A DNA stretch of 64,000 bases from a virus. Below, piece by piece: positions 21,501 to 64,000 of the stretch (position 1 is the stretch's first letter; the number at the start of each line of letters is the position of its first letter). A program made the position numbers and the translations under genes. The notes beneath the pieces were generated by a model. The model saw only the letters and a program-made list of their open reading frames with translations, was not told where the DNA came from and searched no databases. The DNA lies in IMG/VR virus record IMGVR_UViG_3300037391_000010, positions 64,001 to 128,000 of that record; one strand, written 5' to 3'.

Positions 21501-21717
21501 TAACCTCTACAATCAGGCGAGCCGTGTGAAGTACCTTATGAACAAGCTCACCGACAGCGAGATCAAGGACGCTATCAATAGCTCCTCGGCTCAGGGTGCG
21601 GTGTGGCACGAGGGCGAAGAGGGCGGCTACGTGTACGAAGTCTTCGTCCGTATCGACGACATCGACACCGAGAGCTTGATCGCGACATATAGCTTTATTT
21701 GCGGCACGAAGGAATAA
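18562..21717 (+). CDS. ~1050-aa multi-module protein with K-x-A linkers
   Basis: Start MPISIERL overlaps the stop of the previous gene. KIA, KNA, RTA, KGAS, KKAAA, KEAG and KTAG motifs lie between modules. Confidence 0.8.
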   Translation: MPISIERLQAAARRVGADIMHSDDDLSQKLETATPSAAEAGPSHDELVENSHDESGISVIDGEIRPPERQNVSAVRDAIEAQAEMEIGKSIGEKEEEMEARGDGPYGDKEVKDTTTTTIDAKPGKQIIINIAKEVDRGISVAPTQAKGIGGEKQHPRENTSSNGMFGGTSLSATPNFEKHSEEGTPSPDVVARVRGQYTSGMGRKSCMEHFKITEQQLDDILSGKYGKGKIATYHELKAAFTKNARLFNETELRLAGQEYLHMVRTAAIGVAQGQDEQGFHMLLNMNGREYVLRGADADSFRKEYAAIPKPEVAVNKLVEKYLWKMQPYQKQTIQHPPSETKQDSNSQALRRQRSEGLADADAYWGGKEKGQNDYKRYMTQHASTKIAAESYAEYQKLVQERSQIISQNRSRQMKGQPPAPVPPKPQPPMVPVAYAADGTYEGRLQDPADCPPGCKVKWEPAKGASMMTLAKIAGDYFGYDDWITGHTALMINNDSAGLTTLHNLTRSALKKKMTPKQLAGQFAKFFKKFGEQSKKFYAENAENARGERGKHEREQLEGVVKAPSGDKARDFVDSLTNMWYDAGGQSDWEQPSNEVNWEEIATAEMESERAENPDKYPQTNKEDDKFMEGVGMKMESLRTATAVLARVAAMSVGDKHQLRIAIDSLKMNPAMLGVMGGPSREEALEILAKHDLRWDETGGRVIKANDKKAAAGCDWQTEYGMGAGDARCGQPTTGNSPWCAEHIQEAKDNYPQHALPTKNGGEGAVKTPEEIEKEAGFNFFFPGQVLREVAPEMQHELVDYPNQTNTPMQYPDIVGDREEVPEEMALAAALDGALDTTIIAYVSTSPAAAAGIGRDGKSEVLEGAPLRKENDIRGLMFTDEFYGQQSGVPGAAFASQAKAAGFARPGSAFKYLKSLKLGKTAGADEAKQFSIFLQYVCGEIAATLVALFKVTYRPMLNQVPGKGEIQLAQVEQPQGLSSFNLYNQASRVKYLMNKLTDSEIKDAINSSSAQGAVWHEGEEGGYVYEVFVRIDDIDTESLIATYSFICGTKE

Positions 21718-46745: not shown

Positions 46746-48242
46746 GTGAAAATCGTCATCGCCGACAAGCTACCACAGGAACACTCTACCGAATTCAGGG
46801 GGCTCCCTGTTATAATTGAATGGCCGAAGGGAAGCACCCGTGTGGGTAAGAACCCTGACGGTACGACGTTCAAAACAGAGATGAAAGTCGATTATGGCTA
46901 CATCCCCGACACGACGGCGGCTGGGGACAAGGAAAAGCTCGACATCTACGTCGGGACCAATGAAGATGCGGAATATGCCTACATTGTTGAGCAATTGGAC
47001 GACAAGGGCGAATTCGACGAGTACAAAGTGATGCTGGGATTCGACACGCTGGAAGCTGCGGAAGAGGCGTACATTGGGCAGGCGGGTGAGGACCTGCTGG
47101 GCGACATCTCCGAGGTTGATTTCGAGTACCTGTTCGACACGGTGAAAGAGAAACAGAAGGAAGCCGCTGCTAAGAAAGAAGCCAAGTTCGCCGTTGGTGA
47201 GAAATACACAGTAATTGAAGCCTTTTTGAAGAACTACAAGCACGAGGTGGACTTCTACGATGAAGTCGCGCACCTCGTACAGGACAAGTTGGATCAGGCT
47301 CTTCAGGACGCGGGAATCAAGGCGGTGGTTAGCTCCCGTGCGAAAACCCCAGATCGGCTGAGGAAGAAGCTGTACAAGCGGAACCAAAAAAGAAACTACA
47401 AGACGTTCCGCGACATCGACGACGACATCATCGATTTAGCTGGCTGCCGCGTGGCTCTGTACATGCCCGCCGACCGCGATGCGGTTGGAAAGCTCATTGA
47501 AAAGTTATTCGTTCCCGTGCGACCCCCAAAGAGCTTCCCCGAAGCCAGCAAGCCCGAAGAAGGCGATACGCTGGGTTACACGGCGACTCACTATCTTGTG
47601 CGCCTGCGCCCCGAAACGCTTCGTAAGAAGGAGCTTCGGTACGCCGACACTCAGATCGAGATTCAGGTAGCATCCGTCCTGATGCACGCTTGGGCTGAAG
47701 TGACCCATGACTTGCTTTACAAGCCTGAAAAGGGTGAACTGACACCCGAAGAAAAAGCAGCCCTGAGCAATCTGAATAGGTTGGTGCAGGAGGGAGAACG
47801 GGAACTTGAAAAGCTTCAGTTCGCCATCGAAGGCCGCACGGATACAAGCCTTCGGTTTGAAATCGCAGCAGCTTTGGCGACGAGTCTCAAAGCCCGGTCG
47901 ATGGGAAAGACTGCCTCCCTGACCGTAGGCGACATTGAGAAGGCCGTTAGAGCTATTGTTGGAAGCAAGACATCACTGTGGTCGATTTACTTGAAAGCCA
48001 CGGAGACGCTCAGGAAAGCTCGTTGGGAAAGGCCCGACGAGGAGAAATACCGCAAGGCATGGGAATCCGCTGGATATGCGAAACCCGAGGAATCGCCCGC
48101 GAGTGAAACACATTACATTCGCGAGGCCATGGAGAAGCTCGCCCCGGGTAAGCCAGTTAGTACGTTGTGGGTTCTGCCGAATCGTAGTGAGATCATAGCT
48201 CTTGCTCAACAGTTGAAAGCCGAGGCAACAAAGGAAAAATAA
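46746..48242 (+). CDS. Fusion of inorganic-pyrophosphatase-like domain + RelA/SpoT-type nucleotidyltransferase (alarmone synthetase-like) + unknown C-terminal module
   Basis: IEWPKGSTR.G...M..DYGYI...D.EKLDIYVG...FDEYKVMLGF (PPase-like). RAKT...DLAGCRV...GYTATHY...EIQVASVLMHAWAE..HDL.YK (RelA/SpoT). Linkers KEAAAKKEAKFA and KTAS. Confidence 0.85.
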   Translation: MKIVIADKLPQEHSTEFRGLPVIIEWPKGSTRVGKNPDGTTFKTEMKVDYGYIPDTTAAGDKEKLDIYVGTNEDAEYAYIVEQLDDKGEFDEYKVMLGFDTLEAAEEAYIGQAGEDLLGDISEVDFEYLFDTVKEKQKEAAAKKEAKFAVGEKYTVIEAFLKNYKHEVDFYDEVAHLVQDKLDQALQDAGIKAVVSSRAKTPDRLRKKLYKRNQKRNYKTFRDIDDDIIDLAGCRVALYMPADRDAVGKLIEKLFVPVRPPKSFPEASKPEEGDTLGYTATHYLVRLRPETLRKKELRYADTQIEIQVASVLMHAWAEVTHDLLYKPEKGELTPEEKAALSNLNRLVQEGERELEKLQFAIEGRTDTSLRFEIAAALATSLKARSMGKTASLTVGDIEKAVRAIVGSKTSLWSIYLKATETLRKARWERPDEEKYRKAWESAGYAKPEESPASETHYIREAMEKLAPGKPVSTLWVLPNRSEIIALAQQLKAEATKEK

Positions 48243-48248
48243 GTCATC

Positions 48249-48791
48249 ATGGCAGTCGCACCCTTCACCCGCATTGTAGTCGATAAGAAGGAGGAGGCGA
48301 AGTTCCGCCGCCGAGCCCTGAATCATTACCCACTGGAATACATGGAAGCCCTGTGGGGCAAAGTACGTGGTGATATCCTCTACATTCATGCCTTTGTGAA
48401 GGTCGATCATAAGCCCGGAAAACGCACCCTTCGGTACGAGGATTACGAGATTGACGAGCATGAAGAGGATGCAGCCGAAATCGGGCTGACCTACCTTGGC
48501 ACCATCCACACTCACCCAAACGCCGAAGATGCTCAATTTAGCGAGGTTGACTGTGAACAATCGCAGGACTCTCAGGACGTAATGATGGGCATCTGTGCCA
48601 TCCAAACTACCTATCTTGATGAGGAAACCAAGACTCAAAAGCCCCTGAACCGCAAGGTCGTCCGCGTCGAATACTGGCCGACCGTAACCCCACTCATCGC
48701 CATTCGTCGCGACACACCACCCTCAAGGTCGGTCAAACGAGCCCTCAAAAGGGGCTATAAACTGGCGAAAAAGAAGAAGTCCCGTCGATAA
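48249..48791 (+). CDS. JAB/MPN+ metalloprotease
   Basis: E(YMEALWG)...LGTIHTHP....FSEVD matches the E-x(n)-HxH-x7-S-x2-D JAMM motif. Confidence 0.8.
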   Translation: MAVAPFTRIVVDKKEEAKFRRRALNHYPLEYMEALWGKVRGDILYIHAFVKVDHKPGKRTLRYEDYEIDEHEEDAAEIGLTYLGTIHTHPNAEDAQFSEVDCEQSQDSQDVMMGICAIQTTYLDEETKTQKPLNRKVVRVEYWPTVTPLIAIRRDTPPSRSVKRALKRGYKLAKKKKSRR

Positions 48792-48821: not shown

Positions 48822-51800
48822 ATGAATCCATTGCTTCAAATGAAGACCGCCGCGTTCTCCTCGGTACGGGAAATCAATATCTCGGAAGATCAGGGCTCCG
48901 CAGAAGGGTACACAGCGGACACCAGTGCGGAACAACTCCAGAATTGGCTCGACCGCTTCGGCTACACGAACGAGGAATTCGTTGCCGACCTGCGGAAGAA
49001 ATACGATAGCTTCGCCGTATTGAATAACATCAATGTGTACGAAGATTCCCGTGGCAAGGGCTACGGCGATTACCTGCTTCAGGAATTCCTGCGAGAAGCT
49101 GGGGATCATGGTGCGGGTATCTGCCTGCTGGTCGCCGACACTGCCGAGGAACAGGCCAAGGGTTTCAGCTTGGTGGAGTGGTACGAACGTAACGACTTCG
49201 AGCAGATTGCCTCGGTCTACGGCGGGGAACTGATGATATTGGGCATCATGAATCCGAAGATTGTGGCAAAGAAAGCAGCCGCCGACATCGGTCAGATGAA
49301 GAACATTGTTGCCGAGATGATGAGCGTACTCACCGCTGGGCTACCACAGCCCGAAGTCAAGATCATAAACCAGACCAATAGAACGTTGGGGCAATGCCGT
49401 TGGCTTTGGGGCAAGAAAGCCGATCAGACTTGGGGCGATGACAATACCACGTTGGAAATTCAGAAGAAAGTTCTGGGGCACGAGGAGACCCTCCGTCGCG
49501 TCATCGCCCACGAACTGTGTCACCATGAAGTTGCTTTGCTCGTTGCTAAACCAAAGCTTCTGGAGATCGGCTACGAAACCTACAAACGGTATCAGAACAT
49601 TTTCGGGCCTGATGGACACGGCAAGGAATGGAAGGAAGTCGCCAAGCGTTTCGATGCAAAATACGGTGCGGACTTTGTGACAGAGAAATCCGATAAGGAC
49701 ACCGTAGTGGACGAACAAGGCAAAGAAATCTTCATCCTGCTCAATAACTATGTCTACGGTCGGCACAAGCAGCGTTTGGGCTGGCAGTGGGCAGTGGGGC
49801 TTAGCCGTCAGGCTATGGCGTACCTCGATGGGATTGATTGGACTTCAGGCGAATTCAAACTGGTCAAGACGACTGATGCTGTATTCACCAAGGGGCGAGG
49901 CCGAATCAAGCAGTACACAGGATGGAATTTGCCGCGCACCCCTGAACAGGAACAGAAGCTTCAAGACCTCTGGGCGAATGCTCCGATGGCGAAGTTCGGT
50001 GCCGACGAAGACAAGACTGCCAAGTCAGGCCCGCACAAGAATGCGACATCCCAGATCAACCTGCCGCCCGAAGCCGCCGCTGGGATGATGGAAGCCGCGA
50101 AGCAAATTCCCGATGAGGAACTCGGCAAGGATGGTCGCGAGGATGACCCACACATCACAGTTAAGTACGGAGTAAAGCCCGATCCCGATTTGTTGAGTCA
50201 AGTTGTAGGTGAACAGCAACCATTTACGGTAACGCTGGGCAAGACGCACGTATTTTCCGTGAGCGAAAGTTCCGACGCTCAAGCTCCTATCGTGGTTCAA
50301 TGCCATGCTCCCGAACTTGAGGCTCTCCACAACAAGGTCGCGGAAGCGATTGGCACTCGCAAGGATGATTTCCCCTACGTGCCACATGTAACTCTCGCTT
50401 ATGTCAAGCCCGACGTTGCCGCCAAATATGAAGGAATGGACTGGGCTGAGGGCATCTCCTTCCAAGTAGACGCCATCACCCTGAGTACGAAGGGCGGCGG
50501 TCAGGTTCGAGTGCCATTTGGCAAGCCTCGTAAGTCCGCATCCCACAAAACCCCACCGATGAGCGACACGCAGTACCAGAACCCTGAGATGGGTGAGGAG
50601 ACGAACGCTTACGCAGACATTCCAGAGCGTGTGAAGGGTGTCGAAGACCTGCCTTCGCTCGAATCGCTTTCGCCTGACCTATTCAAGACGGGAGCGGGCA
50701 GCGTTCACGATCTCGATTTACAGGACGTGGTTGCTTGGGGCGGCAGCCTCAGTGAGGCACAGGGCGATTGGAACAAGATCAGGGCAGAGGCCGCTGAACG
50801 TGTGAAGGCTGAAGGCAAGGATTGGGAGAAAATGCCCGAGGCTGAACAGGAAGTGTGGCTCGACAAGATTGGCTGGGAGTGGCTCGGGGCGACATGGGAA
50901 GTCACCATGAACCGCCTCCAATCTCTGAAGTTCCCTCTCGTAGTCTACCGTGGGCTGGGCTCCGTCAGCCTCAAGGAGATCAACAAGGGGCAATACAAAG
51001 AGAAGGGCACGGGCATCTATTGGTCTTATGATGAGAACAACGCTTACGTGCATGAGGAACTCGCCGCTGGGCATTCGCACATCATAATGTTGCGAGGCGT
51101 CGTGAGTTCACCAAAGCAGATCGATTGGATTCGTACCGCTTATGTCAACCTCGTGGCATCGGATGAGAAGGAAATCAACATCTGGCCGGGTGAAGAGGTT
51201 CAGATCACGGGCTACAAGTACAAGGGTGAGAAGGCGTGGAAGAATCCACCGAAGAATCTCCGTCAAGTACGTGCCGCCGCCACGAACTTCAAGCCCATGC
51301 TGTTCGACAACTGGTGTGACGCGAACCCGATGTACCAGCCTGACGATTTCAACGAGGCCGAATACCGTTACGATGAGAATGTCGCCCACTTCAGCACTGT
51401 GGATTTCCCCATCACGATCTACCGTGCGGTTCAAGTTGAGCAAGGCACGCAGCCGAACTTGGAGAAGGCTGGCATCTATTGGACGTGGGTTGAGAACAGT
51501 GCTGATGCGTACTTTGGTTCGGGGTCGATATGGGATCAAGGCGGGCCGCATCCGAAGAACCCTCAAACCTTAATTCTAAAAGCCAAGGTGTTGCGTTCGA
51601 CCGATGTGGATTGGGACGCGACTCTTCTCGCCAACATGCTCAACGAAGACGAGAACGAGATCACTGTTGAGGCAGGTGCCCAGCTTCAATTGATTGGTAT
51701 CGATTACGGGCAAGGCTATAAGAAGCCCGCTCAGAAAAGGGTCATGGCATACGGCGACGAATCCAAGAACCTGCCTTTACGTGGACAGAAAGGTGTGGGC

Positions 51801-54800
51801 GGACAGGACTTTCCTCTGATGTTCGACCCGCCGTTGTTCTCGGATGAGAAGGAAGCCGCAGGCAGACCGAAGTTCTACCACGGCACGGCAGCGGAGAACC
51901 TCGACGACATCCTAAAGAACGGGCTCAAAGCCAGCAAGGATATGAGCAGCAACGAGTGGGGTCGGTCTGTGTACCTCGCCTGCGATGCATACACGGCAAA
52001 GAACTACGAGGGGCATCAAGGCAAGGGTCGCGGCAACTGGGTCATATTGGAGATCGACGGCAATAAGCTCCATGAAGACCTGCTTCGTCCCGACGATTAC
52101 GATTTCCGCGACATCTTCGAGAGCTTGCCCGAGGAAGAGAAGGCAAAATGCGAGGGCAACTGGGCGTGGTGCGATTGGCGAATAAGCCTTGAGCACAGTT
52201 GTCAAGTGGCGTACATGGGCGATGTCCCGCCTGACGCCATTAAGGTCGTTCCAACGCCGAAGTTCAGCGCAAAGATCAATCCCAAGTTAAAAGCATGGTT
52301 CAACGGTTCGAAGGTTGTGGACGACAAAGGACAGCCACGCATTGTGTACCACGGCAGCAAATCCACGTGGATCAGTTCCTTCGATCTGGGTATGGAAGGC
52401 ACAGGCACGGCAGGCAGCACAAAGTGGGGCGGCATTTGGTTCACATCGAACCAAGGAAACGCCAGTTGGTTCGCCGATCCGCCCGAGGAAAAGGTTGAAG
52501 CACGCACTGATGACGTGACGGTCTACGGTAATGACCCGTATTATGCCGCCATCACCGACATTAACGGCGAAGGCATTTTCGAAGTTGGCCCGCATCCTAC
52601 AGAAGAGGAAGCGGAGCGAGACGGCATTGCACAGGCGAAAATGTACAACGAGCATCTGGGTGAGGACACCAACGTCCAAGCCGTCTACCTGAAGATCGTC
52701 AACCCGTATGTCACCGATCAGATTCCGCGTGACAAGGAATTCAAAGCCGCTCGGGATGGCGGACACGACGGGATCATCGCCAAAGAGGTAACGGATGGTG
52801 TGGAGGTTAGCGATGTGTTTGTCGTGTTCAGTCCGAATCAGGTCAAGTCCGCTACCCGCAATGTCGGGAACTATGACCCGAACAACCAAAGCATTATAGC
52901 GGGTGGGTCAACCCAGTTGTTGCCCGACGAAGTGGAGCTAGTTGCAGACATCGCTCAAAGCGGCGGCGGGAAGGCATTCCCGAAGCTGGAGAAAGAGCCA
53001 TTGTTCCCCGAGGATAAAGAGAAAACTGCCAGTGCCACACCAGAAATCAAGGAAGAAGCAAACAGTCTCCGATTAGAAGTTGGGGGGCAGAAGATTGGCT
53101 ATATCGGTTATCGCGTGGATCAAGTCGGCAAGAAGAAGTTTGCCGAAATCTCCGGTCTCGAAGTGGACAAGGCATGGCGTAGACAGGGGTGGGGAACAAA
53201 GCTGTACGAAGCTCTTGCCGCAAAAGCGAAACGCGAAGGCATCTCGTTCCTGACCTCCAACCTCAGCGGTATGACCTCTTCTGACGCAGAGGGTGTGTGG
53301 TCTCACCTTATTGGTAAAGGGTACAACATTGAGGAGGTTGCATCCGAGGATTCGGAGACGGGCAAGCCGTATTTCAAGTGGAAAGTCGCCAAGCAGTACG
53401 GCCCCGTCTATCACGGCACCTATCACGAATGGTCTGACAAAATCCAGAATGACAAATACAAGATCGGAAAGTTTTTCAGTTCAGACCCGCTTGTGGCACA
53501 GGCATACGGCAGCTTCGTGCATGAATGTTATCTGACGATGAACAAACCATTCATCGTGGACGCGAAGGGAGAAAGTTACTCCTCAATCCCCACGCCCGAA
53601 GCGTTGAAGCGTTGGGTTGCCTCTGGAATGGATACGGTCGATACTGACAACATTGCTGATTACGCCTCCAAACATGGGTACGATGGCGTCATCATTAAAA
53701 ACGTTGTTGAGCTTCACCACCAAGTCGAGGCGGACGACTACATCGTGTTTAAGCCCAATCAGATTAAGGTGAAGGGCGTCATTGAGCCTGAGATCAGTCC
53801 TTACACTGCCAACAAATACCATAAGCAAGAGTTGCAGCGTCGTTTTGAAAAGAAATACCCCCAGACGGCAAGCTCGCACACGGCGGCGGGACTCCCGTCA
53901 TTCAATGCGTGGGTGAAGAAGAACGGCGGCATCGCCAAGATTCTCGACATGTACGACGTTGACACAGCGGAGACTTACGGTTCCGGGTTGGAAGAGCCCG
54001 AGAATCAAGCTGACGTTAAACGTTACGAGAAAGAACTACACAAGCGTGCCTTGGCGGACTTTCAAGAGCGATACGAGCATTTTATCGCGGAGTACCAAAG
54101 CTGGCAATTCCCGATGGATGTGTTCCGTTGCATCTCTTTGCCAAAGCCTGACAGCAACGCAGGACAGCAGCACTTGTTCCCCGATACTCCGCAGGCACAG
54201 TTCCAGCAAGGATTGCAGGCGATAAAGTACAACGGCGTCGGCATCTTCTGGTCGTGGGATGAAAACTCCGCAGAATGCCATTGGGGTTCTGGCGGGCCGA
54301 ACGTGACGCTGCACGGCATAATCAACAAAGACAACGTTGATTGGGAAGGCACGCTTTACGCCAACATGTTTCCCGCATTGGGCGACGACGAAAAAGAAGT
54401 CCGTCTGATAGAGGGTACACAATTTGAGCTTGAGGGAATCCAATACGACGAGAAGTCGGGATGGTCGCAGCCCCCAGTGAAGACGGTTACGGCAGCGAAG
54501 GCCAAGAAGCGTGTGTTCTACCATGCGACGAGTGCCGCGAACATCAATGGCATTGCACAGCACGGGTTGAAGCCTTCGGAGAAGACGAACTGGGGTGGTA
54601 TGCTGGGAGATAGCTCCCTTGGCAAGACGTTTTTTGCAAAAACACCCGCCTCGGCGATGTACTACGCCATGATTATCTTCCGCGACAAGCTGGAGGATAA
54701 CGGTCAAGCACATGTCCCGATCTGCCTTCGTGTGACCATACCTGAGAAGGTTCAGTTGGACACGGAGCGGGCCCAGAATGTGCAGAGGGGAGTCCATTTA

Positions 54801-57800
54801 CCAGAAAGTGAAGCCTATGCTCCCGATGAGGAATCGTGGGTCACGGAGGGGATTCCGCCTGCGAACATTCAGATGTTCTGGCAGGGTAAGTGGCAGCCAG
54901 TCAAATCGGGCGATTGGGATTCCATGTTCTATTATGAAGAGGGAGAGGGCGTTGGGTACGTGGACTGGGAAGGCTCCCCCGTTGGAGATTCCGTTCCTGA
55001 AGCTATGGCTGACGTTGAGAGCTTCACGATGCCGAAGAAAGCAGGCGTGATGGGTCAGGTATACCTCCTGCACTTCGATATCGATCCGAAGGAAGAGATT
55101 CCTAGCACCCGCGAGGACGCTAAGAAGCCGTTCCACGCTCGTCACTATATGGGCTGGGCCGAGAACGCACAGGAGCGCATCGACCAGCACTACAAGGCAA
55201 CCTCAGGCGTCAAGCTGATCGAAGCCATCCATGCCAAGGGTATTTCGTTCACCGTCGCCCGAATTTGGGATAACGTGGATCGGGACTTTGAGCGTAGGAT
55301 GAAGAATCAGGGCGGATTGAACCGTCACTGTCCTATTTGCAAGAAGCTGGGGCTCATCCCCGCGTCTCGCTATCGCGGCAAGGCATTGGAGAAGCAAGTG
55401 GCACCAGCAACACCTGAAGCAGGGCTAGATTTCGTGGAGATAGAGAAGAAGGCCGCAGCGGGTGATCTCGCCAATCTGCGGAACTACCTCACTCTGAGCC
55501 GCCGCGAGATGGGCGAGGAGTTAGCTCGGAATTTCAGCAGCTATTGGTCAGAGTTCGTAGAGAATGAGCATCCCGAGCTTGCCAATCTTATCGACGAAGA
55601 TGGCTACACTGACAATTTTGACACTGTTCCCGAGGATGTATTGAGCGACTTCCTCGACCAGTACGGCAGTCGGGCACTACAGGATGACCCCGCTATGGCT
55701 CCCACGTTCCTGACTGTGGACTATCGTCGCGATGTCAAGAACGCTTGGCTCGTGCATTTCACCGACTTCCCCGATGAGATTGCCAAGAGTGGTTTCAAGT
55801 ACGGCATGGATCGGGTGGAAACGCTCGCTCTAACGACCTACTTCAAGGAGGACGCGAAGAAGTTCGGTGGGTATAACTTTGCCCTCGACGCCCATCACCG
55901 CAACCTTGAATCTCTCGGGAGCAACTACGGCAAGCATTGCGTTCTGTTCCAAGCGAACGGTATTGAGACGTGGCATACAGGCGATGACTTTGAACAGATC
56001 ATTTTCTGGGGTAAGGACGCGAGGAACATCATTCCGATCTACGACAGCGGCGGGTATGGTACGTGGTCAGTCGGTGAGGACAAAGACGGTAACCCGCTGT
56101 TTGAGAGTGAAGACCTGTCGCAGGTTGTGGAGTGGGCAATTACGAACTCCGCGAAGTTGTTACCCAAAGCCAAGAAGCCGAAAGCTCAGCGTGCAGTCGC
56201 CAGTGAGATGACAACGTTATACCACCGTACTCGCCCGGGCCGTGAGGGACAGATTGACACGCAAGGATTGAGCCATATCGAAGGCGGCGGTGAACTTTGG
56301 TTTACTGATGATCCGTCTGCTTATTATGGGGACTCGCCAAACGCAATGTATAGCGTTGAGGTTCCTAAAGAAGAAGCCGAGGCCGCACACGTGGGTGGAC
56401 ACGATTACCGTTTCATGGGCCGTTCATTCGCCCCCGAACAAATCAAGAAGGTCGGTGCGGAGCCATGGGAAATGCGACAAGATGAATACGCGGGTCGCTG
56501 GAACGAGCAAGAGACAGAGGAGCAGAGCGGTGTGCGTCACCAGAAGAACCAAGATTGGGAACAGAATTCCCTAGCCGCCCTGTCGCTCGGTAAGATCACA
56601 CCAGAACAGGCGAAGGAACGCGGTGTGTACGAAGCGAAATCATTCATACCCCTGCCTCAGACCCCGTTGTATCACGTCACAACCGCCAAGAGTCAAGTCG
56701 AAGCGAATGGTCTCAAGACTCGTCGTGAACTCGGTCAAAATTACGGCAAGGGGTTGGGCGGCGGCACCAGCATGAGCATCAGCTTCACTGATGATATGAG
56801 CATCGCACAGGGCATTTACGATAACCTGCTGATCGCTCGTAAGGTTGCCGCAGGCGAGATGACCTTGGACGATCTGATTAGCACTGCCACTAAGGGCATG
56901 GGTGCGAACCGTCCGTGGATCGACGACATTCTCAAGTCGCTGGGCGGCTCCAACCCGAAGGACAAGATCAACGTGGAACTGGATGCCATACAACGTGGTG
57001 TGGCGTTCGAACACGGGCTGGGTCGTCCACCCGATGACGAAGCGATTCTGCCGCAGTACCGCAAGCCCGGGCCGTGGCGTCCTACTCCTTGGAGCCAACA
57101 TTGGAAGGGCGGCGATGGAGAAGAGAAGTACACGTACTGGGAACGCGACCTCACTCCTGAGGAAAAGCAGGAACGTGTGTTTGAGTTCTTCAAGAAGTGG
57201 AGCTTCTGGCGTGAGCAAGCGGGCGGGGGACTTGATCCGCTGTACTTCATGAGTGATCCAAAAGCTTTGGGTCAGACACCCGAGAGTGAGATCACCATCC
57301 TGACATTCAAGGCTGTGCCCGGAGCAATGGGCACTCGTGAATCGGCATTGGGTGAATGGCGTGTGTACACGGGTGCGGCTGTGCAGCTTACGGGTAACGC
57401 GGCGGCGGCAAAGATGGGGATGTTTAATCCCAACCGAGCTAACGTTCAGTACAATTCCGAGAAGGGTACAGGCGAGTGGGAAGGCTGGAACATCGATTTC
57501 AGCGCCGATCCAGTCAAGGAGCACATGCTGCCCGCATCGTTCGTTCGGAAGCTGAAAGGAATTGAGCAGAAGTTCATCAACGTCGCCGATGTAGTGGAGA
57601 CACAGAGCGAGCACTGGACAAAATCCGAACGTGTGGATGAGATTCACACACAGATGGAAACCGAGAAATGGTTCGAAGCCATTCTCGTAGACGAGTACGA
57701 AGATCAGCAAGGGAAATATTACTTGGAAGAGGGGCATCACCGCACCCGTGTAGCAAAGAAGATGGGCAAAACGACTATTCCAGCCGTGATTATGAAGCTG

Positions 57801-60800
57801 GAACCTCGTAAACCTCACTGGTCGTTATCGTCAGGTATCGTCAGAAAATCGTCAGATATCGCCAAGTTTGCGTTCCTCATCGAAGTTCCGAAGGAGTCAC
57901 GCGGCCATTTCTGGGATGAGCCGCCCGCCCACAATCTGGAGTTCTGGGCCTTCCGAAGCCGTCCTCCTGTCCTGATGAACGAGAAGGTCTACTTCACGTT
58001 CGACAAGATGCCCGTGGCGGAAACTACCTGCCTGAAGATTGAGAAACCCGGCGAGTCGCTGTGTGAACTGAGCGGCAAGTACGAGGATCACTGGAAGCTC
58101 TACTGGGAACCGAAGCAGTTCGTCAAATACGCTGGAGCCACAGTTACGTTGTACCATGGCACTTGCCCTGAAAATGCAACCGCACTCGTTGAAAAGGGAT
58201 GGCAGCCGAATCAAGTGAGCAGTGGGGCGAATCGTGGTCAGTCGAAGTATTTGTACCTGACAAATATGACGGACAACGCTCGCTGGTTTGCTCAAGAACA
58301 TGGGTGCGACACGCTAATCGAAGTTCGCAATATCCCTCTGAGCTACATCGCACTCGACCCTGAGGACGCTACTCAGGACACGGTGGAGGCTGAGCTTGAC
58401 TATAACGGCACGGGATTGCCCGGCACGGTTGTCCTCACACAGCCGTTGGGGGCGGAACATTTCCACGTGCTCCATGGTAAAGTCGGTAGCTTGAATGAGA
58501 AACGAAATGAAAAGTGGATTTACCACCCCGATTACGGTGCGTTCTCACAGAAGGGAAGCATAGGTCCTCATGCGACGTTGATAGCGAGAACCATGGGTGA
58601 GGGCATGGCCTCTGGGTGGAAGTACACTGAGGTACTACGAGGCTACGCAGTAATTGACGTGGATCAAAAAACCGTAACCTTGGCGACTCCCACGAAAGAG
58701 TTCATACCGAACGACGTAGTGGATTTGTTCAAGAAGAAATACCCCCAGTACGACCTATCGATTCCTGCGGAATCGAAAGCGGTTGGTGTGACCGCCGCCA
58801 TGCCGAAGAAGTGGTATCACGGCACGTCCCTGAAGAACGCTGAGAAAATCCTGAAGGACGGCTACCTCCAGCCAGATCAAGAGACGACCTACGACATTGA
58901 CATCCCGCGTGACGGGGCGGTATACATCGCCGACTTCGATATTGCGGAGCAGTACGCTATCGAACGCAGCGGTGTGGTGTTGGAAGTTGCCGCCCCGGAT
59001 ATCAGCAAGCTCCTGCCCGATGAAGATGATGTTTACGAACTGCTCAACGACCGTGGTGGTGAACTAAACGCCAAGGGTTCTGCCCAAGCCAAGCGTGTGA
59101 AAGCTCTGTGGCTCAAGCAATGGAATGATGAGAACGCTTCCTACAATGAGCCCGAGAAGTTCCCGATCTATAAGAACTTCGAGGAAGCATGGAAGGCATG
59201 GGGCGAAATCGAGTTCGAGGGCTCAGCCGAACTTGCCGAGCAGATGAAGTATTTGACCGACTACATTGTCAAGAATGATCCCAAGCTCGCTCGTGCGATC
59301 ATCGAACTGGCGGGTAAGGCTGCTCACATAGGGCCGCTCAAGGTTGTCCGTCAGGTCAAGACGGGTGCTCCGAAGTCCATCTGGTATCACGGCTCCAGCC
59401 TGAAGAACCTGCAAAGCATCATGAGTCAGGGATTGGTTCCCGAAGGTAAGGAAAAGGTCTGGGGGGACGATCCTGACGCTGGGCTATCTGCACCGAGTCG
59501 TCAATCTTACGGCGGAATCTACGTCACACAGAACCTCATGACGGCGACGGGAGCCCCCAATACCGAGGACAAGAAGGCTCGTGGCGGCGTACTGATTGTC
59601 GCCATGGAGCTTCAGCCGAACACGATGTACCTCGACGAGGACAACGTTACGGGAGTCTTAGGCGCTCCAATCAAGCACCTGAGTGACAACACCTTCCACG
59701 TTCTCTGTTATTATTTGGCGGCTACACAAGAAGGCGCTGCTGAGACTTGGCAACAAGAGATAGAAGGAATGCGTGCTGACTATATTCGCAAGTGCCTTAC
59801 GCAATGGGAGAGCAAATTTGCGGAGCGTAAGATACCGTTCCACCCCGAACTGAAAAAGGAACTTGAGAAGATTCTACCCAGTGTGTGGCTCGCGGGCGTA
59901 ACACGAGCGGCAGGCCATGTCAAGGACAACTACTCCTACATTCGGGCTTGGGATCAGGTCTTCTACGGCACTCCGAAGGAGAAGCAGCGTCCCGACGCGA
60001 ACACCGTGCTGCCCGACGCATCTGAGGGAGAGGCGGCGTTCCGCGAAGCGGCAGAGAAGGTCACCCGCACGCTGCGGCTCCTCGCTCGTCCCGCTGAAGA
60101 GTCTTCGAAGAATCAGATTTACAACATGAACACCTCTCGCGTCAACGAGCCGATTGGTTTCAGCGGGTCGAATCACATCCTCGCCCTCATAGAAGTTCGA
60201 GATCGCCAGCAGCCTGCTCAGATGATCCTGCACTGGGGCACCATTCCGCCAGACTTCTTCACCCAGTGGAACATAAAGTTTGGCAGCAAGTACGAAGTGG
60301 TGGACGCCCGCAAGGGTCAGCCCAAGGCTAGGGGTGTGGCAGCCTCAGCTAAAACCGCCGATGATTACGCCGCCGATTACGATCAGGAAGTCTTCTACCA
60401 CGCGACCACGTGGAAGATCGCTGACTTGATCGACAAAGAAGGATTGAAGTCAAGCGACAATCAACTGACTCAGGGTAAGAAGTACATCTGGTGCTCTATC
60501 GATATGGCTGCGGCGAAAACTTACGGTCGGTACTTTAGCCAAGACGAGGATAACGAACAGTTTGCTGTGGTGGAATTCATCTGGAATTACGATAAGAGCG
60601 AGCCTGACCCGGAGCACTTTGAAGAGGGCGACACGTACCGCCGCATCGAGTCCGACATTCCTCGGTCGGCAATCACCAAAATTTACTATTTCGCACACGA
60701 TCAGGTTGTCAAGACGGCTGCGGTAGAGGATAAAATCAAGGTAACCACGGCTCCAGACGGACGAATTACGGCCAAACACGTCGATGGAAGTGCTTCAGGC

Positions 60801-63800
60801 ACCGTGGAAGACCGTGAAGGACTGGCTAAGTGGTTTGATTGGAACACTTTACCACGTGGCGGGGCTGGAATTTACGACAAAGCCTTCGTTTTGGGCACTG
60901 TAACGGTCAAAGTCTCGTGCCGCCGTACAGGGCTCGGCAGGGCGCTTATAGGGGCTGTGCTCGACGCAGCGAAGGCTCAGGGTGCCCAAGTGTGCTTCCT
61001 GCTCGCCCATTCGCTCACAGGGCTCTCCGCGAAGGAATTGAGTGCTTTCTACAGCAGCCTTGGGTTCCAACCATACGTCATCGACCCGCCGCCGCGATGG
61101 TTCGATTCCTCGACCGCTGGCATTTTCATGAAGAAGCTGGCAGGCGTGGCAAAGCTCGCCGCCATGAACCGCATCAGCCAGCAGGACGCCGTGGATCGCA
61201 AGATGTTCGGCCCTGTCTACCATGGCACCACCGAGGAGAAACAGGAGAACATCGGGAACGAGGGCTTCAAGGTCTACATCGGTGACGCGGGATCGGGCGA
61301 CGTTGCTCACGGTTACGAAGGTAACCAACCCTATCATGACGGCATCCCTGCCCCCGTTCACCATCTGGGGTACGGCGTGTACTTCACGACCGCCAAGGCT
61401 ATCGCCAAGCAGTTCGCGGGCGGCACCACGCGAGGTATGAAGACTTACTACCTCGACGTGCCACGGCTGGAGACCATCAACTTCGGAGTACCGAAGACCA
61501 TGATGAAGTGGTGGGTGAGTCAGGGCTACGACGGGGCGCTCGCAAAGAAAGATCGCGTGGCAGCGACCAAGCAGATGACCGAGCACCTGAAGGCTCAGTT
61601 TGATGCCGTGTGGTTCAAGGGCAAGGGCATGTACAAGTTGCTCGATGGCGATCAGATTTGTGTGTTCGATTCGAGTCGCATCTATGAAGTCGATGCAGCT
61701 ATGTCGAAGCCGGGTGACATCGGCTCCAAGGTCATTCGTAAGGCCGATGGGATGAAGGGCGTCATCAAGAACATCCGTCCGATCCCGCCTGAAGTGGCAC
61801 AGCAGTATCACGGTGGGGCGGACAAGTTCTACGAGATCAAGTGGACGAAGGGCGGCACCGACCACAACGTCTACGCCCGCGATATCGATTTCGTTGGGGC
61901 GAAGGCTCAGGGCGCTACGGCGTCAATGAAGACCGCCGAAGGATTCAACGATGAGGGTTTCTGGGCAGGCGAAGGCAATGCCGCGTCTGGCGTTCTGCCA
62001 ATCTGCACCACCACGGGCCGCATCTGTCTCGCATGGCGATCACCCGATGTCCATATCGGCAATTGCTGGGGCACCATCGGTGGGGCGGTCAAGCCGGAGA
62101 TGAGCTTGTCAGAAAGTGCCAAGGCGGAACTGAAAGAAGAGACGGGGTTCGGCGGCGGTGTTACCATGATCCCCGCTTACGTGTTCAGCAGCGGGAGTTT
62201 CTCTTACCACAACTTCCTCGGAACCGTGGGCACGGAGTTCCGCTTCGCTCCGCAGAGCGAACATCACTGGGAGACCACTGGGCTCGAATGGTTCACATGG
62301 GATGAGATTCAGCAGATGGTAAAGGAAAACTCCAGCGATTTCCACCCGGGCCTCATCAGCTTGTTCAAGAGCGACGGCAAGAAGATCGAACAGCTTCTCG
62401 GCAAGCCAAAGACAGCAGCGGGCGACGATGGGGATATGCCGAACATGCTTCAAGTCTTCCCCGAACGTCCCGATGTGATGGAGACTTTCCGCCACATGCG
62501 CCCATTCGAACGGGATCGATTGATCGAGGAAGCTCAAATCGAAGAGATACATCCCGCCGATCTGAAGACAAATCAGGCGACTCTTTCACGGAAAGACCTC
62601 CAGTATTTCTTGGACAACCCCGAGGAGATCACCAAGCCGCACAGCAACGTCGGACTGAGCGACACGGAGCAGTTGTACCCGCTCGTGTGCCGCACCAGTG
62701 AAGGCGATTGGCTGTACGATGGTAATCATCGTGCGAATGCCGCCATGAAGCTCGGCATCATGCTCAAGTGCAAGGTTGTAGACCTACGGGATTACGAGGA
62801 GCCACAAGGAAAGGTTTCCAGAAAGCTCGCCGCACGAGGCGAGGTTGGCCCTGTCTATCACGGCACCGACAAGAAGTTCGACAAGTTCGAGCAGAAACCC
62901 GGCACCCGATACATTCTCTTCTCCGAGATTAAGGTACAGGCTGGTGGGTTCTTCTTCACCGATGACCCTGAGGAGGCGAAGGAGTTCGGCTCGAACGTCA
63001 TGACCTGCTACTTGAAGATGAAGAAGCCACTGATTCGGCAAGAAGACCAGTATAACTTGAGCAAAAAGCAAATCGCCGACCTGACTTACATCTGCGAGCC
63101 ATGCATGAGTGACGGCTATTCCGACTTGCAAGGCAATTCCGTCAAGACGATTGAACTTGGAGCCTTTGCCATCGATGTAGACCCAGAAGGCAACTGGCTC
63201 AACGAGATTGTGAAGCAGAACGGGCTCGATTGGAACATCTTGGATAATCAAGAAGCCGTTAATCGCATGAAAGAGCGCGGCTACGACAGCACCATGGTGG
63301 ATGAGTACAACGGCAAGTATAGCTATTGCGTGTTCTCGACCGACCAGATCAGGGTCAGTGGCGGCAAGACAGCCTCGGGTTGGAAGGACGAAGGCTTGCT
63401 CAACGAAAGCGACATGAAGAAGTGGAAACAATACTGGGACGGTCAGGGGCACAGTATCCAAGTTGACAAAGCCCACGGCGGGCTGTATCACTGCTGGATC
63501 AAGTTCGCAGCCGCCCCAGCCCGAGCATTGAAGCTCTACCATGTCACGACGGTGCCTATCGCCGAGGACATCAAGGCTCACGGCTTCAAGCCGGTCGATC
63601 AGGGTGTGTGGAAGAACTATTACGCCCCGCAGGGACGCGACGGCATCTACTTTTACGACGATCTGAAATACTCCGAGGCTTACGCCGCCTACACCGAGGG
63701 TCAACTTTACACGCGCAACATTCAGCCCGATAGACCTTGGAGTGAAAATAAGAAACACCTACCTCAGATGGCGATTATCGAAGTGCAGGTGCCCGAGGGT

Positions 63801-64000
63801 GTCGCGATTACCACCGACCAGAAAGAGGATGGGTTCTTTGTACCCACCGCTGATCTGGACAAGGTTAAGATCGTCAGCATGAACAAGTACGACTACGTTC
63901 CAGCCAACGGTAGAAAGCCGGGTGAGAAGTTCGGGGCAGCCTTCCCAACCTTCGAGCAGGTCATGGATGAATCTACCTTAAGCATGACTAATGAGTTCAT
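48822..64000 (+). CDS. Giant polyvalent effector protein/polyprotein (>5,050 aa, 3'-truncated): ~17 ADP-ribosyltransferase-fold domains, 3 GNAT, SprT-like protease, 2H phosphoesterase, GIY-YIG, 2 ParB/Srx, NUDIX and unknown modules
   Basis: Hand translation from ATG 48822 (MNPLLQMKTAAFSS...) finds no in-frame stop to the window end. Recognisable catalytic motifs occur throughout (see findings). Confidence 0.92.
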   Translation, partial: MNPLLQMKTAAFSSVREINISEDQGSAEGYTADTSAEQLQNWLDRFGYTNEEFVADLRKKYDSFAVLNNINVYEDSRGKGYGDYLLQEFLREAGDHGAGICLLVADTAEEQAKGFSLVEWYERNDFEQIASVYGGELMILGIMNPKIVAKKAAADIGQMKNIVAEMMSVLTAGLPQPEVKIINQTNRTLGQCRWLWGKKADQTWGDDNTTLEIQKKVLGHEETLRRVIAHELCHHEVALLVAKPKLLEIGYETYKRYQNIFGPDGHGKEWKEVAKRFDAKYGADFVTEKSDKDTVVDEQGKEIFILLNNYVYGRHKQRLGWQWAVGLSRQAMAYLDGIDWTSGEFKLVKTTDAVFTKGRGRIKQYTGWNLPRTPEQEQKLQDLWANAPMAKFGADEDKTAKSGPHKNATSQINLPPEAAAGMMEAAKQIPDEELGKDGREDDPHITVKYGVKPDPDLLSQVVGEQQPFTVTLGKTHVFSVSESSDAQAPIVVQCHAPELEALHNKVAEAIGTRKDDFPYVPHVTLAYVKPDVAAKYEGMDWAEGISFQVDAITLSTKGGGQVRVPFGKPRKSASHKTPPMSDTQYQNPEMGEETNAYADIPERVKGVEDLPSLESLSPDLFKTGAGSVHDLDLQDVVAWGGSLSEAQGDWNKIRAEAAERVKAEGKDWEKMPEAEQEVWLDKIGWEWLGATWEVTMNRLQSLKFPLVVYRGLGSVSLKEINKGQYKEKGTGIYWSYDENNAYVHEELAAGHSHIIMLRGVVSSPKQIDWIRTAYVNLVASDEKEINIWPGEEVQITGYKYKGEKAWKNPPKNLRQVRAAATNFKPMLFDNWCDANPMYQPDDFNEAEYRYDENVAHFSTVDFPITIYRAVQVEQGTQPNLEKAGIYWTWVENSADAYFGSGSIWDQGGPHPKNPQTLILKAKVLRSTDVDWDATLLANMLNEDENEITVEAGAQLQLIGIDYGQGYKKPAQKRVMAYGDESKNLPLRGQKGVGGQDFPLMFDPPLFSDEKEAAGRPKFYHGTAAENLDDILKNGLKASKDMSSNEWGRSVYLACDAYTAKNYEGHQGKGRGNWVILEIDGNKLHEDLLRPDDYDFRDIFESLPEEEKAKCEGNWAWCDWRISLEHSCQVAYMGDVPPDAIKVVPTPKFSAKINPKLKAWFNGSKVVDDKGQPRIVYHGSKSTWISSFDLGMEGTGTAGSTKWGGIWFTSNQGNASWFADPPEEKVEARTDDVTVYGNDPYYAAITDINGEGIFEVGPHPTEEEAERDGIAQAKMYNEHLGEDTNVQAVYLKIVNPYVTDQIPRDKEFKAARDGGHDGIIAKEVTDGVEVSDVFVVFSPNQVKSATRNVGNYDPNNQSIIAGGSTQLLPDEVELVADIAQSGGGKAFPKLEKEPLFPEDKEKTASATPEIKEEANSLRLEVGGQKIGYIGYRVDQVGKKKFAEISGLEVDKAWRRQGWGTKLYEALAAKAKREGISFLTSNLSGMTSSDAEGVWSHLIGKGYNIEEVASEDSETGKPYFKWKVAKQYGPVYHGTYHEWSDKIQNDKYKIGKFFSSDPLVAQAYGSFVHECYLTMNKPFIVDAKGESYSSIPTPEALKRWVASGMDTVDTDNIADYASKHGYDGVIIKNVVELHHQVEADDYIVFKPNQIKVKGVIEPEISPYTANKYHKQELQRRFEKKYPQTASSHTAAGLPSFNAWVKKNGGIAKILDMYDVDTAETYGSGLEEPENQADVKRYEKELHKRALADFQERYEHFIAEYQSWQFPMDVFRCISLPKPDSNAGQQHLFPDTPQAQFQQGLQAIKYNGVGIFWSWDENSAECHWGSGGPNVTLHGIINKDNVDWEGTLYANMFPALGDDEKEVRLIEGTQFELEGIQYDEKSGWSQPPVKTVTAAKAKKRVFYHATSAANINGIAQHGLKPSEKTNWGGMLGDSSLGKTFFAKTPASAMYYAMIIFRDKLEDNGQAHVPICLRVTIPEKVQLDTERAQNVQRGVHLPESEAYAPDEESWVTEGIPPANIQMFWQGKWQPVKSGDWDSMFYYEEGEGVGYVDWEGSPVGDSVPEAMADVESFTMPKKAGVMGQVYLLHFDIDPKEEIPSTREDAKKPFHARHYMGWAENAQERIDQHYKATSGVKLIEAIHAKGISFTVARIWDNVDRDFERRMKNQGGLNRHCPICKKLGLIPASRYRGKALEKQVAPATPEAGLDFVEIEKKAAAGDLANLRNYLTLSRREMGEELARNFSSYWSEFVENEHPELANLIDEDGYTDNFDTVPEDVLSDFLDQYGSRALQDDPAMAPTFLTVDYRRDVKNAWLVHFTDFPDEIAKSGFKYGMDRVETLALTTYFKEDAKKFGGYNFALDAHHRNLESLGSNYGKHCVLFQANGIETWHTGDDFEQIIFWGKDARNIIPIYDSGGYGTWSVGEDKDGNPLFESEDLSQVVEWAITNSAKLLPKAKKPKAQRAVASEMTTLYHRTRPGREGQIDTQGLSHIEGGGELWFTDDPSAYYGDSPNAMYSVEVPKEEAEAAHVGGHDYRFMGRSFAPEQIKKVGAEPWEMRQDEYAGRWNEQETEEQSGVRHQKNQDWEQNSLAALSLGKITPEQAKERGVYEAKSFIPLPQTPLYHVTTAKSQVEANGLKTRRELGQNYGKGLGGGTSMSISFTDDMSIAQGIYDNLLIARKVAAGEMTLDDLISTATKGMGANRPWIDDILKSLGGSNPKDKINVELDAIQRGVAFEHGLGRPPDDEAILPQYRKPGPWRPTPWSQHWKGGDGEEKYTYWERDLTPEEKQERVFEFFKKWSFWREQAGGGLDPLYFMSDPKALGQTPESEITILTFKAVPGAMGTRESALGEWRVYTGAAVQLTGNAAAAKMGMFNPNRANVQYNSEKGTGEWEGWNIDFSADPVKEHMLPASFVRKLKGIEQKFINVADVVETQSEHWTKSERVDEIHTQMETEKWFEAILVDEYEDQQGKYYLEEGHHRTRVAKKMGKTTIPAVIMKLEPRKPHWSLSSGIVRKSSDIAKFAFLIEVPKESRGHFWDEPPAHNLEFWAFRSRPPVLMNEKVYFTFDKMPVAETTCLKIEKPGESLCELSGKYEDHWKLYWEPKQFVKYAGATVTLYHGTCPENATALVEKGWQPNQVSSGANRGQSKYLYLTNMTDNARWFAQEHGCDTLIEVRNIPLSYIALDPEDATQDTVEAELDYNGTGLPGTVVLTQPLGAEHFHVLHGKVGSLNEKRNEKWIYHPDYGAFSQKGSIGPHATLIARTMGEGMASGWKYTEVLRGYAVIDVDQKTVTLATPTKEFIPNDVVDLFKKKYPQYDLSIPAESKAVGVTAAMPKKWYHGTSLKNAEKILKDGYLQPDQETTYDIDIPRDGAVYIADFDIAEQYAIERSGVVLEVAAPDISKLLPDEDDVYELLNDRGGELNAKGSAQAKRVKALWLKQWNDENASYNEPEKFPIYKNFEEAWKAWGEIEFEGSAELAEQMKYLTDYIVKNDPKLARAIIELAGKAAHIGPLKVVRQVKTGAPKSIWYHGSSLKNLQSIMSQGLVPEGKEKVWGDDPDAGLSAPSRQSYGGIYVTQNLMTATGAPNTEDKKARGGVLIVAMELQPNTMYLDEDNVTGVLGAPIKHLSDNTFHVLCYYLAATQEGAAETWQQEIEGMRADYIRKCLTQWESKFAERKIPFHPELKKELEKILPSVWLAGVTRAAGHVKDNYSYIRAWDQVFYGTPKEKQRPDANTVLPDASEGEAAFREAAEKVTRTLRLLARPAEESSKNQIYNMNTSRVNEPIGFSGSNHILALIEVRDRQQPAQMILHWGTIPPDFFTQWNIKFGSKYEVVDARKGQPKARGVAASAKTADDYAADYDQEVFYHATTWKIADLIDKEGLKSSDNQLTQGKKYIWCSIDMAAAKTYGRYFSQDEDNEQFAVVEFIWNYDKSEPDPEHFEEGDTYRRIESDIPRSAITKIYYFAHDQVVKTAAVEDKIKVTTAPDGRITAKHVDGSASGTVEDREGLAKWFDWNTLPRGGAGIYDKAFVLGTVTVKVSCRRTGLGRALIGAVLDAAKAQGAQVCFLLAHSLTGLSAKELSAFYSSLGFQPYVIDPPPRWFDSSTAGIFMKKLAGVAKLAAMNRISQQDAVDRKMFGPVYHGTTEEKQENIGNEGFKVYIGDAGSGDVAHGYEGNQPYHDGIPAPVHHLGYGVYFTTAKAIAKQFAGGTTRGMKTYYLDVPRLETINFGVPKTMMKWWVSQGYDGALAKKDRVAATKQMTEHLKAQFDAVWFKGKGMYKLLDGDQICVFDSSRIYEVDAAMSKPGDIGSKVIRKADGMKGVIKNIRPIPPEVAQQYHGGADKFYEIKWTKGGTDHNVYARDIDFVGAKAQGATASMKTAEGFNDEGFWAGEGNAASGVLPICTTTGRICLAWRSPDVHIGNCWGTIGGAVKPEMSLSESAKAELKEETGFGGGVTMIPAYVFSSGSFSYHNFLGTVGTEFRFAPQSEHHWETTGLEWFTWDEIQQMVKENSSDFHPGLISLFKSDGKKIEQLLGKPKTAAGDDGDMPNMLQVFPERPDVMETFRHMRPFERDRLIEEAQIEEIHPADLKTNQATLSRKDLQYFLDNPEEITKPHSNVGLSDTEQLYPLVCRTSEGDWLYDGNHRANAAMKLGIMLKCKVVDLRDYEEPQGKVSRKLAARGEVGPVYHGTDKKFDKFEQKPGTRYILFSEIKVQAGGFFFTDDPEEAKEFGSNVMTCYLKMKKPLIRQEDQYNLSKKQIADLTYICEPCMSDGYSDLQGNSVKTIELGAFAIDVDPEGNWLNEIVKQNGLDWNILDNQEAVNRMKERGYDSTMVDEYNGKYSYCVFSTDQIRVSGGKTASGWKDEGLLNESDMKKWKQYWDGQGHSIQVDKAHGGLYHCWIKFAAAPARALKLYHVTTVPIAEDIKAHGFKPVDQGVWKNYYAPQGRDGIYFYDDLKYSEAYAAYTEGQLYTRNIQPDRPWSENKKHLPQMAIIEVQVPEGVAITTDQKEDGFFVPTADLDKVKIVSMNKYDYVPANGRKPGEKFGAAFPTFEQVMDESTLSMTNEF

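Follow-up and report, generated by a model that had tools for sequence, protein, structure and literature searches.

A Giant Phage Protein with Some Twenty Candidate ADP-Ribosyltransferase Modules of Mixed Type

Introduction

How many ADP-ribosyltransferase (ART) domains can a phage carry in one polypeptide, and what might they do there? The question is raised by a stretch of 64,000 nucleotides (nt) of viral DNA, referred to here as the window, which corresponds to bases 64,001 to 128,000 of the single 155,417-base virus record IMGVR_UViG_3300037391_000010. From position 48810 on the (+) strand, an uninterrupted open reading frame (ORF) runs beyond position 64000 of the window and is still open at 63998. 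The full gene, at 112810-129264 of the record, encodes a protein of 5,484 amino acids (aa), called the giant in what follows, with its first 5,063 codons inside the window and its end 1,264 nt (421 aa) beyond the edge; in a public protein collection it is the called gene P0002, of 5,480 aa. A first reading of the window made from its letters alone (the sequence-only reading) had proposed about 17 ART-type modules in this one protein. All 17 were located in the one ORF, and with R4, R5 and H15, which lie past the window end, the giant holds 20 candidate ART modules.

The record is that of a phage, being an IMG/VR virus record with a terminase and other phage genes, and its large terminase is 39.6% identical to that of Tunturiibacter phage Tunturi_5, a jumbo phage of Acidobacteriota. 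Completeness is put at 48% (IMG/VR/CheckV), so if the estimate holds, the record represents about half of a jumbo-phage genome. The explanation preferred here, with a probability of roughly 0.6, is that the giant is a polyvalent effector polyprotein, encoded by a soil jumbo phage that is a distant relation of Tunturi_5, with about twenty autonomous ART-fold modules from at least five ART sequence families. Four modules would be ART-PolyVal (H-Y-D type), seven or eight would form a minimal Tpt1/PARP-like H-type cluster, and two or three would be H-type orphans; a minimal R-S-ExE family would contribute four copies, and an R-S-QxE type (R..SWS..QxE) a single one. Of the three great ART clades as defined in PMC9503650, two, the H-type and the R-S-E clade, are clearly present, in keeping with the several clades first proposed.

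An Array of Modules in One Gene

The abundance of ART motifs in the giant is far beyond what its composition would give. Judged by 1,000 residue shuffles, 0.35 +/- 0.6 copies of the H-type start motif ([hydrophobic]2-H-[GARVF]-[TS]) and 0.001 copies of FPxx[LIV][YF]R would be expected, whereas the giant has 14 of the former and four of the latter. Eight of the 17 modules in the window (H1, H2, H3, H6, H13 and R1-R3) have direct support from Pfam, a fold search or a profile comparison with solved structures, and six more (H4 and H8-H12) are tied to directly supported modules by profile-profile links of 84-97%. Support is weak for two (H7 and H14), and one (H5) has a motif and predicted secondary structure only. 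The view that most of the modules are ART-fold domains is supported. Outside the giant ORF, no ART module was detected in the 155-kb record. Several module families have no match in the copies of Pfam and PHROGs used: single-module Pfam scans at E 10 gave nothing for R1-R5, H5, H6, H7, H11 and H15, and a PHROGs search gave nothing for most modules.

Such an array could in principle be an artefact of chance motifs or of a chimeric or misassembled ORF, and the record is indeed an incomplete virus contig derived from a metagenome. Against this stand the motif counts, the Pfam, fold or profile support for 14 of the 17 modules in the window, and collinear homologues of 3,000-5,800 aa from independent samples and sources (JGI, NCBI, ENA and Logan). 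On the strength of these collinear homologues a chimeric ORF was ruled out and the artefact reading is treated as excluded, its residual probability being very small.

Eight related giants of 3,152-5,842 aa were found in metagenomes from four sources. Scanned with the module profiles of the present giant, they carry 7-16 of the same ART modules in a partly conserved order, with gains and losses, and none of the eight exceeds its module count, although some may be incomplete gene calls. In one relative, P0004, the giant stops after 3,152 aa, and the gene next to it on the contig (L022:12483-13364) is of a GIY-YIG/NUMOD3 homing-endonuclease-like kind; insertion of a mobile element may split or truncate that giant. 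Among 50,697 phage records, a megablast search with the giant gene found no match, and a tblastn search with 3,000 residues of the giant found only Tunturi_5 and two marginal matches.

The copies are old, as had been surmised from their divergence. R1-R4 are 24-33% identical to one another, and a recent tandem duplication was ruled out because nothing in the gene is repeated at the level of DNA except the 33 nt that encode GIYWS in the R modules.

The R-Type Modules

Coordinates given for the parts of the giant are those of the window, all modules and domains lie on the (+) strand, and residue numbers refer to the 5,484-aa protein. R1 (50877-51254, residues 690-815) is a minimal module of the R-S-E type (VYRG .. 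YWS .. DEKEI), and R2 (51342-51779, residues 845-990) and R3 (54072-54503, residues 1755-1898), the latter with an insertion after strand 1, are its paralogues. These are the three R-S/T-E modules of the sequence-only reading, which had found the right modules and placed them some 60-180 nt too low; its positions for the remaining modules proved accurate. R4 (residues 5075-5195) and R5 (residues 5195-5362) lie past the window. R1-R4 are connected as paralogues by phmmer at 1e-5 to 1e-13 (2e-7 for R2 to R1) and by hhalign at 100%. Together with 12 relatives from viral contigs they conserve R25, W49-[S/T], D83-W84, T87 and E97-x-E99, with R, W[ST] and ExE conserved at 90-100% across the 16 sequences.

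Structure prediction, proposed at the outset as a check, was run for R1. The AlphaFold2 (AF2) model, built on the R-family alignment, has a mean pLDDT of 83.7 and places R on strand 1, W-S on strand 2 and ExE at the opening of a later strand, which is the R-S-E arrangement; a Foldseek search with it returned cholera toxin A1 on top (best E 9.5e-3), followed by other ART toxins. Conservation, positions in the model and fold matches agree in giving R1-R4 the R, the S/T, the ExE and the ART fold of the R-S-E clade. In both size and structure, this minimal R-S-ExE family comes nearest to two Rhs toxins, TreX and TreTu (8s2m, 7zhl). These toxins and the cholera/heat-labile enterotoxin A1 group share only 14-17% identity with the R modules and give no significant sequence match, and their delivery, by Rhs and the type VI secretion system (T6SS) or as AB5 toxins, differs from the phage polyprotein context seen here. 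The R and R5 family profiles found no meaningful match among the sequences of solved structures.

R5 stands apart. Ten sequences conserve Y-R-G, S-W-[ST] and Q-x-E-[WY], with R, SW and QxE invariant at the level of the motif, and in the ESM Atlas the nearest named cluster is DRAT at 0.93, which is a lead only. No Pfam match to ADPrib_exo_Tox (PF03496) was obtained for R1-R5 at E 10 or for members of the R5 family. A true PF03496 module does occur in the related giant P0008 (aa 1883-2012, E 2.2e-8) and is without a counterpart in the present giant; comparison by hhalign of R5 with the R family, and of either with the P0008 module, gave agreement at the motif level only, with probabilities below 1%. 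Viral contigs of 12.7-608 kb carry the R family both embedded in open frames that exceed 1,000 codons and as free-standing ORFs of 163-224 aa. Solo proteins of 130-230 aa occur in all three of the R, R5 and H15 families, and those of R5 and H15 are common. In one 310-aa protein, P0092, an R5-type module is fused to an H-type module (AYHATG).

A close parallel among phage proteins is T4 Alt, which is packaged in the virion and has a single ART, of the R-S-E type, in about 680 aa. The R family shares with it the R / S-T / ExE active-site pattern and the notion of a phage ART that is thought to enter with the DNA. The R modules differ in being only 110-140 aa long, in having no Pfam ADPrib_exo_Tox match and in belonging to a protein whose packaging is a prediction.

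The H-Type Modules

The most secure of the H-type modules are H2 (52302-52904, residues 1165-1365), H3 (53373-53789, residues 1522-1660) and H13 (62817-63374, residues 4670-4855), which score 65.6, 54.3 and 59.6 bits, respectively, against Pfam ART-PolyVal (PF18760, gathering score 31.2 bits). The three ART-PolyVal-like modules of the sequence-only reading were thus found where it had put them. A module near 61165 that had been called PARP-like is H12 (61173-61694, residues 4122-4295; VYHGT .. GVYFT .. GYDG), and here the label needs revision. Its score against PF18760 is below the cut-off (17.9-20.4 bits, E 9e-4), and hhalign links it to H3 at 88% over 124 columns, alongside H2 at 92% and H13 at 97%. 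Because of this link, and with the GYDG motif also present, H12 is taken as a fourth module of the ART-PolyVal type with an insertion, and not as specifically PARP-like. These comparisons among modules used alignments of orthologues only, so paralogues cannot inflate the scores.

A second group gathers around H1 (51837-52289, residues 1010-1160; FYHGT .. VYLA), a PARP/Tpt1-like module with 28.4 bits against Pfam PARP (PF00644, cut-off 26.7 bits) in a match limited to profile positions 44-109 of 199. H4 (FYHAT; 54486-55049, residues 1893-2080) reaches 20.5 bits against the same profile (E 3.7e-4), and H10 (WYHGS; 59352-60365, residues 3515-3852), which has a large insertion, 15 bits, with weak matches to Pfam PARP/PTS_2-RNA; H8 (LYHGT; 58119-58529, residues 3104-3240) matches Pfam Arr-ms at E 0.13. 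Profile comparison by hhalign connects H4 (94%), H8 (87%), H9 (WYHGT; 58782-59363, residues 3325-3518; 92%), H10 (87%) and H11 (FYHAT; 60357-60743, residues 3850-3978; 94%) to H1, and H9 to H10 at 92% over 93 columns. H6 (56187-56504, residues 2460-2565) is a minimal H-type module (LYHRT). H15 (residues 5358-5484), past the window, was aligned with 53 solo homologues some 130-150 aa long, and its family profile, an independent one, connects to H1 at 98.2% over 115 columns, as well as to H4 (93.9%), H9 (95.3%), H10 (92.4%) and H8 (87.3%). At E <= 1e-3 the H15 family has about 250 relatives, the majority of them solo proteins 130-150 aa in length; five members were scanned with Pfam, and all stayed below its cut-offs. 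Against solved structures the H15-family profile matched Tpt1/KptA chains at E 1e-4 and then, weakly, PARP10 and DarT.

The ten further H-type modules first proposed were all located, with H7, H14 and H5 standing less firmly than the rest. H7 (LYHVTT; 56631-57494, residues 2608-2895) is divided in two by some 120 residues of inserted helical sequence. H14 (LYHVTT .. GIYFYD; 63501-63944, residues 4898-5045) has an hhalign link of 60% over 92 columns to H4 and a Pfam ART-PolyVal match at E 0.036. H5 (WLVHFT .. GGYNFA .. QIIF; 55707-56195, residues 2300-2462) is a candidate H-Y-Q module: eight orthologues conserve WL[VI]H-x-T, GG[YF]NFA and Q[IV]IF, and its predicted order of strands and helices is compatible with an ART core, but no significant profile, fold or hhalign link was found. 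When H5-H7 were submitted together to a fold search, the matches came mainly from H6, so that the result is uninformative on the fold of H5. Used as single sequences against those of solved structures, H5, H7 and H14 gave nothing. The known relatives of H5 are the related giants; a search of proteins of 89-286 aa yielded no solo form, and one of proteins of 287-2,000 aa no relative at all.

The nearest solved relative of the minimal H cluster is Tpt1/KptA (PF01885; 9ld3, 8tfz). The match covers only the C-terminal lobe that binds nicotinamide adenine dinucleotide (NAD+), chain residues ~87-157 of 177-180, and the H-type modules, 100-190 aa long and beginning at the H motif, lack the N-terminal RNA-binding lobe and have Y, W or F in place of H on strand 2. 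With only the NAD+ lobe matched and the RNA-binding lobe absent, they are not members of the Tpt1 family, and their mostly aromatic residue on strand 2 makes them look like H-Y-[EDQ] members.

This kinship bears on what the modules might modify. Proteins are not the sole option for targets, since the closest structures for some of the H-type modules (KptA/Tpt1 and Arr) act on nucleic-acid ends or small molecules. Were the modules to act mainly on such substrates rather than on host proteins, the giant would be an anti-defence toolkit on the network of NAD+ and ADP-ribose (ADPr), along with its 2H and Nudix domains, and its possible activities would be to ADP-ribosylate the ends of RNA or DNA (KptA-like, DarT-like), to modify or destroy immune signals derived from NAD+, or simply to consume NAD+. 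Beyond the Tpt1/KptA relationship, this idea draws on the fold search with H7, whose best structural rows were Arr and BC2332, on ESM Atlas leads of H5 to the Tad6 and Arr-ms clusters (0.85-0.86, lead strength only), and on the presence in the same polypeptide of a NUDIX domain and a 2H module with a weak Acb1 match (E 2e-4). It is nonetheless judged unlikely: the absence of the RNA-binding lobe argues against it, the R family, with its ExE, resembles protein-modifying toxins (TreX, heat-labile enterotoxin and cholera toxin (LT/CT), and pertussis toxin), and the ART-PolyVal / HYD2 clade was grouped by Iyer et al. with protein-modifying ARTs (PMC5512222).

The active-site residues speak to a different doubt, that in many modules the ART fold is a catalytically dead scaffold, used for binding, as a decoy or for structure within an internal protein of the head or an ejection protein, and that only a few modules are active. 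W or F replaces Y at the second-strand position in H2, H3, H4, H6, H11 and H13, several modules contain large insertions (H7, H10), and the pseudo-PARP domains of TASOR and PARP13 are among the structural neighbours. In the ART-PolyVal modules, as read from the sequence, the strand-1 H is present in all four (H2, H3, H12, H13), the G[YH]D motif is present, and the strand-2 residue is Y only in H12. Against a dead array stand the strand-1 Y-H-x-T, invariant across orthologues in the H modules checked, and the conservation of R, W[ST] and ExE in the R family, and the small solo proteins of the same families would suit autonomous enzymes better; it is considered quite improbable, more so than an array directed at nucleic acids and small molecules.

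Other Domains and the Linkers

The ART modules are interspersed with other domains. At the N-terminal end are a SprT-like zinc metallopeptidase (HELCHHE; 49287-50024, Pfam PF10263, 26.8 bits) and the 2H phosphoesterase (LigT / 2',5'-RNA-ligase-like; 50022-50549, PF13563, E 2.7e-14). Further on are two GNAT acetyltransferase domains (52962-53384, PF00583, E 3.7e-15; and GNAT2, 60732-61175, PF13508, E 2e-5), a ParB-N-like module (57477-57845, PF02195, E 0.0044, below the cut-off) and a NUDIX hydrolase (61947-62384, PF00293, E 1.1e-7). Pfam reports three GNAT regions in the giant in all, and the families above its cut-off are ART-PolyVal (three times), SprT-like, 2H, GNAT and NUDIX, with ParB_N weak. 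By eye, a GIY-YIG-like motif (YLLHFD .. HYMGWAEN .. R..H) can be seen at 55227-55544 and a second ParB-like motif (LYDGNHRANAAMKLG) at 62382-62825, neither of them found in Pfam at E <= 0.1. PF26898 is also listed for the giant in a precomputed table.

The giant has 19 copies of a short linker motif, K-x-A-[A/S] or VTA[A/S], where shuffled sequences give 5.3 +/- 2.4. With the module boundaries as drawn here, 15 copies coincide with junctions, and three of the remaining four lie 20-32 residues inside the drawn edges of the GNAT2 and GIY-YIG segments; these three are taken as putative junctions. The modules of gp225 of Tunturi_5 (L024:11449-15237) are separated by the same K-x-A-[A/S] / VTAA linkers. 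The motif is a candidate protease site.

The Genomic Neighbourhood

Two genes precede the giant on the (+) strand, both assigned by Pfam: one for a 498-aa InPase + RelA/SpoT protein (46746-48242) and, directly upstream of the giant, one for a 180-aa Prok-JAB peptidase (48249-48791). Two or three of the related giants share upstream genes with this one, the InPase + RelA/SpoT gene being found upstream of P0004 and P0005 and the Prok-JAB gene upstream of P0004 and P0007. The pair may be delivered together, one as a nucleotide-alarmone effector and the other as a peptidase for processing. Some 23 kb separate the giant from the terminase, which is upstream of it on the same strand.

Outside the window, the record encodes a protein of the nicotinate/nicotinamide phosphoribosyltransferase (NAPRTase) family (G000:C1:9527-10255, locus L026, E 4.5e-46). 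Tunturi_5 has a NAPRTase-family gene too, with NAMPT and a cytidyltransferase near its polyvalent gene. Given the NAPRTase-family gene, NAD+ salvage is possible and the phage may help to keep NAD+ available. Macro and ADP-ribosylglycohydrolase families were not found in the half-complete record.

Elsewhere in the window, a 707-aa protein encoded at 31232-33355 combines an Ice-binding-like beta-helix domain (E 1.2e-26) with a K1-lyase C-terminal domain and is a probable tail spike or depolymerase. Upstream of the terminase, at 12657-21717, are two very large ORFs of 1,971 and 1,056 aa, in which the module profiles of this analysis detected no ART modules.

An Extreme Polyvalent Protein

The class to which the giant belongs is already known, since it has the architecture that Iyer et al. 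named polyvalent in 2017, a description that the sequence-only reading had missed. ART is the commonest protein-modifying domain of polyvalent proteins, and the maximum reported was 12 ART copies, in the Pseudomonas aeruginosa prophage protein WP_023121221.1 (PMC5512222). Like these proteins, the giant is a very large phage-encoded polypeptide that combines multiple ART-PolyVal domains with a zincin peptidase, GNAT, ParB and other effector domains; ART-PolyVal, PARP-like, GNAT, 2H, SprT-like, ParB_N and NUDIX, several of them unrelated, all sit in the one 5,484-aa ORF, and like them it is predicted to be packaged and injected. It departs from the extreme case in having about 20 ART-fold modules rather than 12, from at least five families and two great clades, and from the class in that a Pfam scan of the whole protein showed no SNF2 helicase, methylase or MuF. 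The mixture of R-S-E and H-type modules was not found in the founding paper (PMC5512222), to which the giant and its relatives are in this respect an exception. The giant is therefore an extreme and unusually mixed polyvalent protein rather than a different type of system, and its novelty lies in having as many as 20 modules, in the way they are mixed and in several module families that are unclassified.

The closest cultured relative, Tunturi_5, has a polyvalent protein of its own in gp225 (XOB77668.1, PP885688.1), which is 1,262 aa long and annotated as a MutT/NUDIX hydrolase. It contains two ART-PolyVal modules and one H-type module joined by the linkers already described, whereas the giant far exceeds its three ART modules and has the R-family modules that it lacks. 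In Tunturi_5 the gp225 gene immediately precedes that of the portal, and the two share a strand.

What the Array May Do

The usual hypothesis for polyvalent proteins is a host-targeting function (PMC5512222, PMC9503650), and such a functional reading of the array plausibly fits its context. The giant would be synthesised late and packaged in the head, an association with the head being suggested by analogy with gp225 and its neighbouring portal gene. Cleavage at the repeated K-x-A-[A/S] / VTAA linkers would then separate the modules from one another, and the pieces would enter the host with the DNA. Early in infection the modules would draw on the NAD+ of the host for the ADP-ribosylation of several of its macromolecules, proteins and possibly nucleic-acid ends, in a manner resembling that of T4 Alt at its smaller scale. 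The array itself would evolve through the gain, loss and shuffling of modules.

Several points weigh against this picture of a packaged polyprotein of active ARTs. The giant is not adjacent to portal or capsid genes in the record, and no MuF domain was found. The apparent 'minor head protein' PHROG matches of the InPase + RelA/SpoT gene upstream fall on its N-terminal aa 10-149, where Pfam has the InPase domain (aa 13-128). Among the modules, H7, H14 and R5 have weak or motif-level support and H5 is without statistical support, and the non-canonical W or F on the second strand means that some modules may be inactive.

A bolder version of the polyprotein reading can be offered tentatively, as something doubtful though likelier than an array aimed mainly at nucleic acids and small molecules. 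In it, the giant would be a protease-cleaved cassette library that releases some twenty different H-type and R-S-E ARTs at injection, at least four families of them unmatched in the copies of Pfam and PHROGs used; it would be the largest and most diverse known ART array, shuffled among soil jumbo phages as a combinatorial arsenal for host takeover and anti-defence.

Concluding Remarks

The polyvalent class is extended by this giant, both in ART copies beyond the published maximum of 12 and in the mixing of R-S-E with H-type modules. The existence of a cultured relative, Tunturi_5, with its gp225, makes packaging and cleavage testable. The uncharacterised families (minimal R..W[ST]..ExE, R5 and H15) are also stand-alone phage proteins, and their characterisation would aid the annotation of many unassigned phage genes. 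If the modules are active, one phage protein would deliver about twenty different NAD+-using enzymes, and the array would be a panel for finding new targets and specificities of ADP-ribosylation in bacteria.

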